A stretch of 64,000 bases of DNA, taken from assembly GCA_002477545.1 (NCBI GenBank), contig DLQJ01000007.1, positions 87,188 to 151,187 on the forward strand, written 5' to 3'. The notes under the pieces were generated by a model. That model was not told the DNA's origin, searched no databases, and was given only the letters and a program-made list of their open reading frames with translations. Made by a program: the position numbers and the translations under genes. This document shows positions 31,731-60,316 of this stretch, one piece after another. Source of the DNA: Patescibacteria group bacterium UBA7435. GTDB lineage: Bacteria > Patescibacteriota > Minisyncoccia > Phycocordibacterales > UBA918. Each line of letters begins with the position of its first letter. Positions within the stretch are counted from its first letter, which is position 1.

Positions 31731-31803
31731 TCCGGCGTAGCTCAGCTGGTAGAGCAGTTGACTGTTAATCAATTTGTCGCAGGTTCGAGTCCTGCCGCCG
31801 GAG
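31731..31803 (+). tRNA. tRNA-Asn (GTT), CCA not encoded
   Basis: Acceptor TCCGGCG/CGCCGGA, D arm GCTCAGCTGGTAGAGC, anticodon loop CTGTTAA, T arm GCAGGTTCGAGTCCTGC. Confidence 0.97.
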
Positions 31804-31860
31804 CAACGAAAATGAGCCCCAATTACAGGGCTCATTTTTAGTAGGATAGTTGGTGGTTCG

Positions 31861-31901
31861 AACCTAAATGTATTGACATACGTTTAGGTTATATGTACAG
31901 T
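31861..31901 (+). promoter_or_regulatory. Sigma70 promoter TTGACA-17-TACAGT with 30-bp inverted repeat centred on the -35
   Basis: aacctaaatgtat-tgac-atacgtttaggtt (13-bp arms, one mismatch). Confidence 0.65.
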
Positions 31902-31958
31902 CTTGTTAGATTCAGCGATTTGCTGATGGAATACCGTTCAACAACAGGGGAATATACC

Positions 31959-32462
31959 ATGTTCAGATTTAGTCGTGACAAACGATTTTATTCCAGAATC
32001 TCATTCGAAGAGTTCTTTCAGGTGGCAACTACACTCGTAGCAATGGTCAAGAAAGCGAGGTCAAGTGCAATCGTAGAAATCCTTACGACCGAGGACACTC
32101 ACACCCACCTGTACTCGCAGGTCACCTTCATGGCAGACGAGGTCACTGAGGCGCTCAAGGGACGAAAGTCTTACTCACTCGAAGAATTCACCAATGAAGT
32201 CTATAGTCGTTCGATGAGTGTGCAATTGACACTCAAGGATGAAGCTGACTCGAAACCTTTTATGATTTGTCTTTCGCTGGACAAGGATGAGTCACGGAGT
32301 ATGAAGTTCTACGGACAAGCTGTTGAACAGGAACTCGTCAACCTCATCCACGACTCCTTCTCCAGCCCAAGCTTCTTCTACAAGGTTGGCGACGGCTATT
32401 CGAAGCCCTCGGCTTTCAACTTTGCTTTCGGTCAGAGACTCACAGGTATTCGCTTGAAGTAA
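31959..32462 (+). CDS. Hypothetical protein inserted behind tRNA-Asn
   Basis: Start moved to ATG 31959 (AGGGG SD, promoter upstream); own terminator at about 32477-32505. Confidence 0.75.
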   Translation: MFRFSRDKRFYSRISFEEFFQVATTLVAMVKKARSSAIVEILTTEDTHTHLYSQVTFMADEVTEALKGRKSYSLEEFTNEVYSRSMSVQLTLKDEADSKPFMICLSLDKDESRSMKFYGQAVEQELVNLIHDSFSSPSFFYKVGDGYSKPSAFNFAFGQRLTGIRLK

Positions 32463-32590
32463 GTCTCATAACATTATCCTCATCGCTCAGGCGGTGGGGT
32501 TTTTTACACCAGAACTCCATCATCTTGCAGGTCAGGAAGCATCACATTGATATCATTTTGAGCATAAAAAGTTCGAACAGCCTCAAAGGT

Positions 32591-32750
32591 CCGGAGCAAT
32601 ATAAAAGTCCCCTTTTGGGGGCTTTTTTACTTGTTCCGGCGGAGAAAGTGACTAAACGTCAGTTTCGCCAGGACTCGAAAAGGTTGCCTGGCATTTTCTT
32701 TAGAAAATGGCGACAACCTATACTGCGCCTGTGAAGCGAGAACCCTGCCC
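32591..32750 (+). repeat. tRNA-3'-related structured element, copy 1
   Basis: Direct repeat ccggagcaa of tRNA end, terminator, then tccggcgg-[26 nt]-caggactcgaa (split antisense of tRNA 3' end), aggttgcc/gcgacaacct hairpin, closing gcgagaaccctg. Confidence 0.75.
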
Positions 32751-32811
32751 CCCATCGAAACAAGTAAAAGTAAAACATAGCCAGAAATCACAATTAATGT
32801 ATACTGCTGGC

Positions 32812-32937
32812 ATGGCAAAACGATCAACAAAATTAACGCAAACATATGGGTCACGACATTCCCATAAAACAAAGAAGCGTCTAGAAACAAAATACGAAAT
32901 GCTTGCTGAAAAAGCGAGTAAAGGAAGCAAGAAGTAA
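32812..32937 (+). CDS. Small basic protein (41 aa)
   Basis: MAKRSTKLTQTYGSRHSHKTKKRLETKYEMLAEKASKGSKK; TATACT 6 nt before ATG; terminator right after. Confidence 0.65.
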   Translation: MAKRSTKLTQTYGSRHSHKTKKRLETKYEMLAEKASKGSKK

Positions 32938-32974
32938 GCTAAAACCACCGTTAGGGTGGTTTTTTCGTTTTGGA

Positions 32975-33049
32975 TCCAGTGGAAAAGTGACTAAACACCA
33001 CCTTGACTAAGACTCGAACCGACAATGAATGATACCGGCGAATACCCTG
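32975..33049 (+). repeat. tRNA-3'-related structured element, copy 2 (degenerate)
   Basis: tccagtgg-aaaagtgactaaac...-gactcgaacc...gcgaataccctg; shares aaagtgactaaac and gactcgaa with copy 1. Confidence 0.7.
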
Positions 33050-33105: not shown

Positions 33106-34638
33106 TTATAGACGCTCTTCTGCCAAAGTAGCAAACGCACTGCGTTCACCGCTTTGGAGCGTAACGTGTCCCGTAATCATTGCAGTGCGCAATGTACGGA
33201 TGTATACCGACAAACCACAGGTATGTTCTGTCAGATACGGGTCATCAATCTGGGCTACGTTGCCTAGAAAAACTATTTTTGAATCCATTCCTACACGCGT
33301 TGAGATCATTTTCAACTTCTTGACGGTGAGATCTTGTGTCTCATCAACAATAATCAGCGTGTTGGCGATACTGCGACCCTTCATGAAATTCAGGGCCTTG
33401 ATTTGAATAAGCTTTCTGATTGCTTCGTCTGAAGCATTCTGCTCACCTTCACCACGCAGTTCTAACAAAGACTCTAGATTGTCATAGAGTCCACCCATCC
33501 AAGGAGCAAGCTTCTCTTCTTCAGTTCCGGGTAAAAATCCAATGTCTTCATCAGACCCAAACATGGAACGAGTAAAAATGATTCGCTTGTACACTCCTCT
33601 CCTTAGTAGATGTAGACCAGCAGCAAGTGTCAAAAATGTTTTACCACTACCAGCCTTACCTGCGAGTGACACTGCAGGCAAATTTATATCAAGTAACAGT
33701 TGCAATGCAATTGCCTGCTCAATATTCCTAGGAACAACATTAATCTCCTTAAGGTCAGAGTGATGAGAGAATGTCTGCGCAACCACATTTGTCGTGCTAT
33801 TTTTTGAGATAACACGAAGTGGCTCTTGCTCAGGAATGAGCAAGAACTCATTACAGGTAACCTTAGCCAAATCAGGATGCTCAAATGTGTATTGAGAAAC
33901 ACCCTTGGCACTTTCAGGATTACCAACATTGCTGTCGAAGAAATCTGACGGCATAGTATGGAAACCTGGAGTGAGATCTTCCTCACCCTCAACAAGACCT
34001 ACCGTGTCACTAAGATACTCCTCAGCATCTAAGCCAACAACACTTGCCTTAATCCGGCAGCTACCATCGTTTGATACCAAGACAACTCGTTTTCCTTCTT
34101 CCTTAAGCGCCAAACAAATCAGAATAATCCGATTGTCTGGATGATTAAGATCCAGATCGAACTCCTTGTGAGCCACCGGTTTAGTGAAATCAAAGTGAAG
34201 TGTCCCAGTGTGTGGCTTCCCATTGATCAACTCAGATGGGGGTACTAGTTGTACTCCTTTCTGAATATCTTGCGTGGACTTGCCTTCAAGCAGTGTGCCG
34301 ATTGCTCGGATTGCTTGCCGGACATTCCATGCTTCTGGGGTGTGACCTTTCTTATGTGTATCAAGCTCCTCAAGAACCTGACTTACAATACACACATCAT
34401 GTTCTTCGAACTTAAACAGCGAATCCCATGCAGACATGATCACGTTCGTATCAAGTACGTAAGTAATTACGCTCTTTGTGTCAACTGATATGCGACGAAA
34501 CTTAGCTGGGATACTTTGCTTTGTATGCCAGCTTTCTGCCTGAGTCTGCCTCTTACTCACTTTATGGTGAGGTGGTTTTCCATTTCCTTTGCCCCGAGGT
34601 GAACCGCCCGGGTTCTTCATTCCATTTGTGTGTGGCAT
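33106..34638 (-). CDS. PIN domain + PhoH ATPase (PhoH2/YlaK-like)
   Basis: VLDTNV, EELD, PDNRI, LVSND (PIN); GKAGSGKT, IGFLPG, MKGRS, VDETQD, GNVAQID (PhoH). Confidence 0.92.
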   Translation of the reverse strand: MPHTNGMKNPGGSPRGKGNGKPPHHKVSKRQTQAESWHTKQSIPAKFRRISVDTKSVITYVLDTNVIMSAWDSLFKFEEHDVCIVSQVLEELDTHKKGHTPEAWNVRQAIRAIGTLLEGKSTQDIQKGVQLVPPSELINGKPHTGTLHFDFTKPVAHKEFDLDLNHPDNRIILICLALKEEGKRVVLVSNDGSCRIKASVVGLDAEEYLSDTVGLVEGEEDLTPGFHTMPSDFFDSNVGNPESAKGVSQYTFEHPDLAKVTCNEFLLIPEQEPLRVISKNSTTNVVAQTFSHHSDLKEINVVPRNIEQAIALQLLLDINLPAVSLAGKAGSGKTFLTLAAGLHLLRRGVYKRIIFTRSMFGSDEDIGFLPGTEEEKLAPWMGGLYDNLESLLELRGEGEQNASDEAIRKLIQIKALNFMKGRSIANTLIIVDETQDLTVKKLKMISTRVGMDSKIVFLGNVAQIDDPYLTEHTCGLSVYIRTLRTAMITGHVTLQSGERSAFATLAEERL

Positions 34639-35798: not shown

Positions 35799-36197
35799 AT
35801 GAACGATACATACAACTGGTACCAAACGCTTATGAAGCCTGAATGGGCACCTCCCTCTTGGTTATTCGGACCGGTATGGAGTGTATTGTACACCATCATT
35901 GGTATTTCTTTTGGATATGTAGCATACATATATTTCAAAGGCGGTATTCCTTTTATTGTACTCCTACCTTTTATTCTCAACCTTATTTTTAACGCTGCGT
36001 TCACACCACTTCAATTTGGACTACAGAACAATCTACTTGCCTCATTGGACATCCTATTGGTTCTGGGAACATTAATCTGGGCGCTGTATGCAATATATCC
36101 ATACATTCCCTTGGTTACATACGTGAATATCCCCTACCTTTTATGGGTTTCATTCGCGTCTGTCCTACAGCTAACTATCACCTATTTAAATCTATAA
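35799..36197 (+). CDS. tspO: TspO/MBR family protein
   Basis: WYQTLMKPEWAPPSWLFGPVWSVLY, PYLLWVSFA. Confidence 0.93.
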   Translation: MNDTYNWYQTLMKPEWAPPSWLFGPVWSVLYTIIGISFGYVAYIYFKGGIPFIVLLPFILNLIFNAAFTPLQFGLQNNLLASLDILLVLGTLIWALYAIYPYIPLVTYVNIPYLLWVSFASVLQLTITYLNL

Positions 36198-36200
36198 TAT

Positions 36201-36608
36201 ATGTCATCACTTCATTTCGTCTATCTCTATCTACTGACTATTCCAATATTAGCGCTACTTGATATTCTTTGGCTTGGTTTTATAGCAAATGATTTTTATC
36301 AAACTCGACTAATGCATTTACTTGGTCCGGTACAATGGCCTGCTGCAATTGCTTTTTATTTTATATTTATTGCTGGGTTACTGTTCTTTGCAGTGGCCCC
36401 TGCACTAGATGGACAATCACTTAGTAAAGCAATAATTTTAGGCACTCTCTTTGGATTCTTTACCTACGCAACCTACGACCTTACTAATCTTGCAACACTT
36501 ACAGACTGGTCGTTATCGGTAGTATTTGTAGACATTATTTGGGGAGCGATACTTTCAGGCTCTATTGCAGCAATAAGTTACAGTATTGGTAAATGGTTAT
36601 TCCTCTAG
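36201..36608 (+). CDS. DUF2177 family membrane protein
   Basis: LDILWL, YATYDLTNLATL, DIIWG. Confidence 0.85.
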   Translation: MSSLHFVYLYLLTIPILALLDILWLGFIANDFYQTRLMHLLGPVQWPAAIAFYFIFIAGLLFFAVAPALDGQSLSKAIILGTLFGFFTYATYDLTNLATLTDWSLSVVFVDIIWGAILSGSIAAISYSIGKWLFL

Positions 36609-36618
36609 TAAAAGTGCG

Positions 36619-37122
36619 ATGAAGACCATAATTGTCACAGACGCGATGCAATCACACTACACATACACCCGAACAGAAAAAGTTGGGAAGAATTTTCATA
36701 CTGATTTCAAACCGCACCTTACCCCACAAGAAATGCTCTCTATGGGTATTTTTGGCGGCCTGTATTTTAGTGACACACCTGATGAATTCCCGAAAGCTTG
36801 GTTTGCAAAAGCACCGCTTTCCCCAGACAAGAAAGTCCACAAGGAACTTAACTACTACAAAGTAAACGCCAGTCAAGATCTCTCTATCTGGAAAGTGAAG
36901 GGTTGGATCCATACAGATGATCCCCGGGGATGGTTTCAGTGGTACTGTAGATACTACCTCGGGCGTCGACATGAGGACGATGCACGTCAAATTAAACGGT
37001 GGAAAGCTATCACCCGACATGCTTCACAGATAGTGCACAACTGCCGTCCTGGAGATCAGCACTGCCGTCCCAGACAACGTCAAGCCATACTGCACTGGTC
37101 GTATGATGCGCGCAATCTATAA
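36619..37122 (+). CDS. Conserved hypothetical protein
   Basis: TPQEML.MGIFGG.Y, GWI..DDPRGWFQWYCRYYLGRR, RQIKRW, RQAILHW. Confidence 0.8.
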   Translation: MKTIIVTDAMQSHYTYTRTEKVGKNFHTDFKPHLTPQEMLSMGIFGGLYFSDTPDEFPKAWFAKAPLSPDKKVHKELNYYKVNASQDLSIWKVKGWIHTDDPRGWFQWYCRYYLGRRHEDDARQIKRWKAITRHASQIVHNCRPGDQHCRPRQRQAILHWSYDARNL

Positions 37123-42524: not shown

Positions 42525-43733
42525 TTATCCTGGCACACAGGCTAATGCACTACTATTCGGAGGCATTTTGCACGTACCAGAGAGCGTCCCCTGTGGCGTG
42601 GTAACTGTGCAGCTGCTATTTGATGATTTACCAGAACATGCAGTAATTGCTTCAGCTGGAGGTCCGTCGTTGCTTGAGGAACCAGTCTGTCCTTCTGGCG
42701 CAAGAGCTGAACCGCCTGCTTGTCCGCCAGTATCAGGACCTTTCTGGAAAGTGCTATCAAGCGTACCGTGTACGCACCGTGTAATACGTGGGAACGAGTC
42801 AGTCATAATATATACGTATTCCCCATCGATGTATGTCCCATTACACTCATCAAGATTACCCAACCCTTTCACATATTCATAATCTTGAGTATATTTTCCA
42901 TCATATACTCCTCCGGGCCCACTTGGTCGAGTTCCGGACTTAACCTGATAGCTCGCACTATACGCATTGGATTGCGAGTAGTACATCGGGAACCCATCAG
43001 CAGCCCACGCGAGATGAATCATGTCTCCCGACTGATCGGTAAGTGCCGTCTCGAGTAGACCTTCAGGTGTTGCGTGATAATGATAGGTACCACCTGGTTG
43101 CACGTGCGCATTTGACCAGTCGATACCAAGCCCTGCAACTCCGTTATAGAAAGCTTCTTCATTCCAGCCTGAAGTTCGGTCGTTGTTGTAGAATTCTCCT
43201 GTTCCAGCCTCAAGCGGAATTCCATTAAGTGCTACTCCTGCAAGTTGTGCATTGGTGACTGTTGATTTGTACACTGGTACCATTGGCACCTTATAGTCAT
43301 GATCTTGGGCACTTATTGCATTAGGATTGCCACTATTAGGAAATGTGCCTGGCTCATGTTCTGGAATACCGTCTGAGGTAATGTACCGATAGATGCCATC
43401 AGTAGTAATAACTGCAGACCCATATCCACCATTTTTTATAAACAATGAAGGAGTAACTGCCGGTTCTGGAACGACATCTTGAATATCTTCAGCTTGTACC
43501 TCAGGTGTCGTTTCATTTGGTGTTGATTGAGTAGTTACCTCCTGTTGCAACACCCTATCTTTCACAGCGATATACTCACTATGAGGATGTTCATGTGTAT
43601 CCTCATAATCTTCATGCACAGCTTGATGATCATAGGCATCTTCATTTTTTTCAGCAATTAGTTCGTAATAAGCGAGTGCCCCGACTGCTCCAATAAGAAG
43701 TACGAGAATATACACAAGAATTTTTGTAATCAT
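42525..43733 (-). CDS. YHYH-domain exported protein
   Basis: TM anchor, GIPEH, GVALNGIP, AHVQPGGTYHYH, WAADGFPMY, LDECNG; Cys-rich C-tail. Confidence 0.9.
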   Translation of the reverse strand: MITKILVYILVLLIGAVGALAYYELIAEKNEDAYDHQAVHEDYEDTHEHPHSEYIAVKDRVLQQEVTTQSTPNETTPEVQAEDIQDVVPEPAVTPSLFIKNGGYGSAVITTDGIYRYITSDGIPEHEPGTFPNSGNPNAISAQDHDYKVPMVPVYKSTVTNAQLAGVALNGIPLEAGTGEFYNNDRTSGWNEEAFYNGVAGLGIDWSNAHVQPGGTYHYHATPEGLLETALTDQSGDMIHLAWAADGFPMYYSQSNAYSASYQVKSGTRPSGPGGVYDGKYTQDYEYVKGLGNLDECNGTYIDGEYVYIMTDSFPRITRCVHGTLDSTFQKGPDTGGQAGGSALAPEGQTGSSSNDGPPAEAITACSGKSSNSSCTVTTPQGTLSGTCKMPPNSSALACVPG

Positions 43734-60067: not shown

Positions 60068-60316
60068 AGTAGAACCCTCTCTCGTTAGGACTCCCTGTGG
60101 GTACAAAATCTAACGGGCCAAGTTTCTAATTCATTATATTCATAAGAACTTCCTTTCTTACAGAAACTGTTTAGGTTGTCGCTCTGAAGATCTGGCAACC
60201 TCTTGCGAAAGTATTTTGATACTTTCTCACCCGGCCTCGACTGTTTTTATATTGTGAATAATAAAAACATGTCTCCGACTGTCAAAAGAGTCCAAAAGCA
60301 AAACTGTTTGCTTTCT
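60068..60316 (-). repeat. Multi-hairpin structured element, same family as the 32.6-kb element
   Basis: Minus strand: agaaag...ggactc...aggttgcc/gcgacaaccta...gagtcc; at least five stems; starts right after a terminator. Confidence 0.65.

Follow-up and report, generated by a model that had tools for sequence, protein, structure and literature searches.

A one-gene cassette at a tRNA-Asn gene, probably placed by a large serine recombinase acting in trans, and a separate antisense trailer repeat behind it in a Patescibacteria genome

The window analysed here is the whole stretch of 64,000 nucleotides taken from contig DLQJ01000007.1 of a Patescibacteria group bacterium (assembly GCA_002477545.1). 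The genome under study (G000; 863 kb, 94% complete) has 34 tRNAs. Other G-codes denote comparison genomes, and C7, C8, C15, C16 and C19 are contigs of G000. A tRNA-Asn gene in the window is followed by a small gene, a repeat with tRNA-like arms, a second small gene and a second repeat, with the following features:

31731-31804, + strand: tRNA-Asn(GTT), from the tRNA calls.
31783-31801, + strand: putative host-type (B) half-site, the part of the tRNA from the T-loop to the 3' end, with its motif (31783-31791) at -19 to -11 from a presumed crossover at 31801/31802.
31798-31806, + strand: left CCGGAGCAA copy of a 9-bp duplication (attL core), placed by the empty site in G002 and G010.
31807-31870, + strand: left end of the cassette, a terminator-like hairpin and a conserved tail with a terminal GTTCGAA motif.
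31873-31901, + strand: sigma-70-like promoter of the cargo gene (TTGACA-17-TACAGT), a consensus match only.
31959-32462, + strand: cargo gene, an ORF of 167 aa.
32478-32505, + strand: terminator-like hairpin of the cargo gene (hairpin proper 32478-32499).
32503-32568, + strand: conserved extension of the right end of the cassette, common to cassettes with other cargo in G034, G002, G490, G495 and G506.
32569-32597, + strand: putative 29-bp element-type (P) half-site, with its GTTCGAA motif (32571-32579) at -24 to -16, 5 bp further out than in the tRNA.
32591-32599, + strand: right CCGGAGCAA copy of the 9-bp duplication (attR core).
32600-32630, + strand: AT-rich terminator-like hairpin, originally the trailer of the tRNA, with a stem that continues into the antisense arm.
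32631-32679, + strand: antisense tRNA-Asn copy, with the acceptor strand at 32631-32642, a side hairpin at 32643-32668 and the T-arm at 32669-32679.
32681-32738, + strand: shared module core, a hairpin (32681-32719) with a conserved 3x2 internal loop and a small hairpin near 32723-32738.
32739-32749, + strand: truncated sense copy of the tRNA end (module core and sense copy together, 32681-32749).
32812-32937, + strand: basic ORF of 41 aa with its own promoter-like site.
32941-33049, + strand: terminator-like hairpin and a decayed second module without a fold signal.
60068-60316, - strand: another member of the module family, flanked by two protein genes and with no tRNA adjoining.

The locus is two separate things stacked on one another, a one-gene cassette and a split antisense repeat. 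All feature coordinates of an initial annotation of this DNA are confirmed, and its unit of about 790 bp between direct repeats measures 793 bp from one CCGGAGCAA copy to the other, with a promoter-like site, an ORF and a terminator-like hairpin inside. That annotation proposed, as one of two readings, a non-autonomous unit at a tRNA 3' end that needs a recombinase in trans, which still stands, but it merged this unit with the antisense repeat and took the repeat for the cassette boundary. The boundary is instead the 29-bp half-site at 32569-32597, before the second CCGGAGCAA copy, which it had missed.

The 793-bp unit is an insertion between the tRNA-Asn gene and its structured repeat. The site is empty in G002, where tRNA-Asn is joined directly to a trailer 85% identical to 32591-32725, and in G010 the order of tRNA, module and small ORF is that of the window minus the 793-bp unit. 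The comparison with relatives that the initial annotation had proposed also turns up further copies and other cargo. The same cassette occupies the same site in a relative's metagenome contig (L091), with 81% protein identity, and in another metagenome contig the cargo gene stands behind a module instead. Both cassette ends recur with different cargo in relatives, and the left end (31807-31870) is possibly the decayed tail of a recombinase gene. In one relative's contig the right end runs through the core into the left end, as would be the case in either a circle or a tandem junction, and a chromosomal junction of right end and left end exists in G506.

The cargo protein has 28 database matches including itself, its relatives come from Paceibacterota/Paceibacteria assemblies, and DNA of the locus is present in marine sequencing runs, which suggests a host of the Parcubacteria type. 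It has no Pfam family above the cut-off and is not an integrase. Its structural model is a confident alpha/beta fold (pLDDT 93) with no Foldseek match at E<=0.001, and the best VIA match (Z 8.0, rmsd 2.9, 84 aligned) is uninformative. Of 60 genus genomes, 8 have the 41-aa ORF, as a rule behind tRNA-Asn, and in G004 it lies between decayed sites and before a module; it is likely an older cassette or a fixed neighbour.

Further along the window, a PIN + PhoH gene (33106-34638) is in reverse orientation; it stands forward behind a module in G034 and is skipped in one relative's contig. The three genes at 35799-37122 have no cassette ends in the window and lie between cassette ends in G034 and G002. 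In several relatives an insert of about 300-600 nt interrupts tRNA-Asn itself near the anticodon (L018/L042 in G027, L041 in G011, L045 in G035, L047 in G006 and L036 in G022), and the split matches suggest that these are likely group I introns.

A pattern for the 29-bp site, run on 128 genus genomes, matches in 27 of them, compared with 1 for the reversed pattern used as a control. Nine of the 27 have only coding or RNase-P-like matches, and 18 genomes with real sites remain. A stricter pattern matches in 5 of 401 genomes of the order, two of them in other families. The sites form rows behind tRNA-Asn and are oriented as the tRNA, with one real inverted exception in G073. The rows have up to 8 sites and no integrase, and the 29-bp site punctuates them: G505 has 8 sites on two contigs, spaced 0.5-1.4 kb, G014 has 5, and G504 and G506 have 4 each. 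Site arrays are found in G505, G504, G506, G014, G034, G033, G372 and G476, plus G398 of another family. Conservation is limited to the 29 bp in an alignment of 61 junction rows, about 17 of which (counted by eye) then carry a module. The window cassette keeps att-like ends and has no integrase, and such units are in tandem at the target gene in relatives. In the G073 cassette (L176:93-803) an inverted site and the tRNA-Asn end face each other with a short palindrome between them, and the far end has a second site.

The tRNA-Ala(TGC) locus of G000 (C16:30870-31968, minus strand) is an internal replicate of the whole tRNA-Asn layout, with a cassette and a displaced module. Its single ORF, of 148 aa and membrane-like, is followed by a half-site shifted by 6 bp and then by two modules, the antisense arms of which are specific for Ala.

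The geometry of the sites indicates that the enzyme for the cassette is most likely a large serine recombinase (LSR), and not a tyrosine recombinase or HUH nuclease. Relative to the tRNA end, the cassette site has 5 additional bases between GTTCGAA and GGAGC. Across 34 loci with 263 motif occurrences, partly selected by a site pattern that permits 13-18 nt, motif and GGAGC are 10 nt apart in 18 cases, 15 nt in 48 and another length in 2. In the serine integrases of Listeria LI/A118 the ZD motif is described at 16-24 in attP and at 11-19 in attB (passages of PMC3783163). The 5-bp offset matches this signature of attP versus attB, which suggests the LSR reading, with a probable crossover at the GA of CGGAGC.

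LSRs are encoded in 94 of the 128 genus genomes, and many of their genes extend into a tRNA 3' end on its antisense strand, tRNA-Asn included. The two that were tested have all three domains (resolvase, recombinase and zinc ribbon). The serine recombinase genes L139, L142, L143, L145, L188, L189, L190, L194, L198, L201 and L209 end in codons that read the target tRNA in antisense (Arg, Val, Glu, Gln, Asn, Ser, Leu, His), and excision would therefore alter the C-terminus. Three of six LSR elements examined at tRNA-Asn (G461, G479 and G004) have a 5-bp-shifted site at the far end, which in G479 is nearly the cassette consensus; no far-end site was found for the tRNA-Asn elements of G267, G035 and G027. 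Among 12 LSR elements at other tRNAs, 4 have a far-end site (shifts of 5, 5, 6 and 6), 2 have none and 6 could not be anchored. Further sites stand behind the LSR element in G461 and G479. G004 shows the displacement seen in the window: behind a 15-kb LSR element come first the site and then a module that matches G004's own allele. After the core, the 61 junction rows have no conserved second (P') arm, so the sites are lopsided relative to a textbook attP. A weak palindrome centre is seen in 2 of 3 autonomous elements, being best in G461 and second in G004, and is absent in G479.

Genome searches of G000 (94% complete) find no LSR and no resolvase, and the cassette has no recombinase gene. The genome does encode a single Xer-type tyrosine recombinase, one Y1 HUH gene and one long GIY-YIG protein. 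The initial annotation had named a HUH or tyrosine-type enzyme as a candidate partner, which does not agree with the closing of LSR elements by the same site, nor with the absence of the module from all 30 HUH/Y1 and all 30 tyrosine recombinase loci searched; the 12 GIY-YIG loci also lack it.

It is likely that the one-gene cassette was inserted in trans by an LSR at the tRNA-Asn end, and that the antisense repeat belongs to a separate family of trailers, displaced here. We consider it unlikely that the cassette is an immobile relic, that is, an autonomous LSR element that lost its interior and is inherited vertically, with the rows as fossils of successive insertions. The same cassette at the same site in L091, at 81% protein identity, would agree with a relic, as would the resemblance of the left end to LSR gene tails, the absence of an LSR from G000 and the statement, in the sections of PMC3146451 drawn on here, that such islands may be fixed. 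Rows of many short single-gene units in the same orientation with near-identical sites (8 in G505) and the use of the same ends for different cargo argue against it, as does the contig in which a right end and a left end meet at the core, though that contig also fits a tandem junction. An integron, or a Xer-driven system served by the single tyrosine recombinase of G000, is very improbable. The layout is integron-like and such a tyrosine recombinase occurs in 107 of 112 genus genomes, but the enzyme scores 143 bits against an integron-integrase cut-off of 265, passes a XerA-type model and is encoded far from the arrays, the junctions have no conserved palindrome, the cassettes have their own promoter-like sites, and the 29-bp site closes LSR elements. 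A dif-like reading of the site was rejected, as the GC-skew switch is about 80 kb away with no similar site there. A quasi-palindrome near that switch (C15, about 42640-42670) may be a dif site. A viral scan gave one chance match, inside a gene.

The antisense repeat has the layout found behind most tRNAs of G000, in which an AT-rich hairpin is followed by an antisense acceptor strand and T-arm, a shared core and a sense copy. The stem of the trailer hairpin runs into the antisense copy, which is often split by a side hairpin, and a few core types are shared. The arms track the adjacent tRNA, as the initial annotation had suggested checking: when the 300 nt downstream of each tRNA are scored against all 34 tRNAs, the antisense arm is best for its own tRNA in 21 of 34 cases compared with 3 of 34 in the upstream control, and the sense copy in 9 of 34 compared with 1 of 34. 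In 13 of 34 cases the own tRNA does not have the best antisense match.

The window antisense arm has one mismatch to the tRNA and is split by a 26-nt hairpin. Among the 34 tRNAs, tRNA-Asn has the top score over 32600-32900 (33.5, with the next at 28.6), so the match is above chance, and the split antisense tRNA copy already noted at 32631-32679 is real. The closing sense copy has lost its acceptor part in the window and is intact in G002 and others. Fold z-scores are -8.2 for the intact G002 copy and -2.2 for the window copy, which is a displaced, decaying copy of the tRNA-Asn trailer. The second copy proposed at 32975-33049 does share sequence with the first, but it has no fold signal (z +0.8) and tRNA-Asn is outside its five best antisense matches. 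The copy at 60068-60316 does belong to the same family, though without the adjoining tRNA.

Core profiles (E<=0.01) find 25 A-type and 16 B-type cores in G000. Eight A cores are behind tRNAs, one is the displaced window copy and two are in tRNA 5' fragments; of the remaining 14, 10 have an upstream gene on the same strand, which in one case is far away. Nine B cores are behind tRNAs, and 6 of the other 7 are behind same-strand genes. The protein genes that precede modules include some that we take, from their N-termini, to be fusA, rplJ, rpsF, rpsI, rpsB and nusB. Across 28 A cores, after removal of a spurious row from 29, the helices covary: the outer helix swaps whole, the inner helix varies freely and the 3x2 internal loop is kept; 18 G-T and 0 A-C pairs are present on the tRNA-sense strand, under a search that itself accepted G-T. 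Antisense arms could be parsed in 10 of 33 distinct tRNA-Asn loci (partly LSR-selected), and by eye 7 fit their own allele and 3 resemble another. Rfam at gathering thresholds and at E<=5 gives only tRNA and sub-threshold hairpin matches, and none for the module. Modules are present at 3 of 40 LSR loci, two of these being one gene and one a tRNA trailer. Cassettes also stand directly behind module sense copies, which implies that modules either are second docking sites or travel and insert among the cassettes.

Some modules are upstream of tRNAs, set in a copy of the tRNA 5' part just past the D-loop (L033:2753-2880, C7:9258-9350 and C19:3731-3821). The convergent tRNA pairs Leu/Cys (C8:24825-25154) and Thr/Asp (C8:87527-87898) have a module for each tRNA, back to back. 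A region of about 900 nt without a long ORF (C7:40500-41300) has two modules and other repeats. No tmRNA is called in G000 at default settings.

Among the readings of the module, that of an RNA is most likely, followed by a single-stranded DNA element and then by a switch of tRNA maturation. The fold, the orientation and the likeness to the tRNA-linked repeats of E. coli place the RNA first. By analogy with these repeats, the module may be a co-transcribed RNA that is processed like a tRNA end, a reading for which we see an even balance. It is possible, though doubtful, that the module is mobile DNA in its own right, a small element folding as single-stranded DNA that a HUH enzyme or recombinase inserts at gene ends, with the target end copied twice. 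Its copy number in a single genome (25 A cores and 16 B cores), the tandem and interleaved copies, the 3 of 10 parsed antisense arms that resemble another tRNA-Asn allele and the folding of both strands are consistent with mobility. However, the 30 HUH/Y1, 30 tyrosine recombinase and 12 GIY-YIG loci have no module nearby, no reverse transcriptase was found in G000, and the copies are mostly in the sense of the upstream gene. A REP/REPIN element with a RAYT was rejected, since none of the 30 Y1 loci has a module and the Y1 gene of G000 has other short repeats; this Y1/RAYT-like gene (C15:160400-161050) is flanked by its own short inverted repeats.

A fold-back switch on the pre-tRNA that controls its maturation, which was also among the initial proposals, is improbable. 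In the predicted minimum-energy fold of an intact locus the cloverleaf is open and the arm is base-paired to the tRNA 3' end, and the arms do track their own tRNA. On the other side, the arm is beyond the T-run of the terminator, the same core is also present after protein genes and within tRNA 5' fragments, insertions between module and tRNA are tolerated, and 13 of 34 tRNAs have no match of their own. For the window copy the proposal is unsupported, since 830 nt and two terminator-like hairpins separate the tRNA from the arm.

In the preferred reading of the locus, an LSR from another element would insert the unit with the tRNA 3' end as its docking site. The cassettes may be deletion or capture derivatives of autonomous elements that kept both ends, and each new arrival at the tRNA would shift the trailer and the older units further downstream. 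On the transcribed strand, the module core would be closed into a branched fold by its antisense and sense copies, and the sense copy may also regenerate a half-site of the tRNA type, so that modules and cassettes become interleaved. A more speculative and rather doubtful extension is that Parcubacteria have an integron-like form of gene capture on borrowed serine recombinases, in which cassettes dock again at T-arms and the fold-back module supplies fresh half-sites, renewing the array and sparing the tRNA.

No description of either family in these bacteria was found in the literature searched, in which subscription journals were thinly covered. Tandem accretion by LSRs is already known, and this and the decay of the window copies reduce the weight of the locus. 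The trailer module, a structured repeat that follows most tRNAs and many strongly expressed genes, is undescribed. Through such cassettes, ultra-small bacteria that have few mobile elements would have a concrete means to gain and swap single genes. The enzymes (of the G461, G479 and G004 type) and the 24-bp half-sites are named and testable in E. coli, and recombinases that read the universal T-loop and an acceptor-end core could be useful tools.

Integrons have the integrase IntI, palindromic sites of the attC type and promoterless cassettes. The window locus and its relatives are like integrons in having a row of small cassettes in the same direction that grows from one anchor, but they have no IntI and no palindrome of the attC type, the cassettes have their own promoter-like sites, and the sites have the double-stranded geometry of the serine type.

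The large serine integrases of Listeria LI/A118 share the offset of the 9-bp motif (16-24 in the element half-site, 11-19 in the host half-site, as described in parts of PMC3783163), and three-domain enzymes at the same target, tRNA-Asn, in relatives are a further likeness. In contrast to LI/A118, only one arm is conserved here, the host motif is the tRNA T-loop, the cassette has no enzyme, the sites stand in tandem rows, and in relatives the recombinase C-terminus is encoded by antisense tRNA.

The ssrA islands of Dehalococcoides are described as tandem elements behind a stable-RNA gene that accrete by a serine recombinase, 15 of them without an integration module (sections of PMC3146451). 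These islands and cis-mobilizable elements resemble the present locus in their tandem layout and enzyme-less members. Their boundary is described as a 20-bp direct repeat of ssrA, whereas here it is a distinct element-type half-site, and the units are of 0.5-3 kb, often with one gene. Tycheposons of Prochlorococcus are also anchored at tRNAs, new arrivals push older elements inward, and a minority use LSRs, according to the portions of 10.1101/2020.12.28.424599 used here. As described there, Tycheposons encode an integrase (of the tyrosine type in 910 of 937) and often replication genes, whereas the present cassette has no enzyme.

For the module, the closest comparison is with the TLR/RtT repeats of E. 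coli, which lie behind tRNA or rRNA genes and end in a copy of the 3' end of the upstream gene, three of them being described as transcribed and processed (parts of PMC8144298). The module shares the direct copy of the 3' end of the upstream RNA gene, and it has no homology in sequence or structure to the TLR/RtT family in Rfam. Compared with TLR/RtT as described in those parts, it adds a split antisense copy and shared branched cores, and it also stands behind protein genes.
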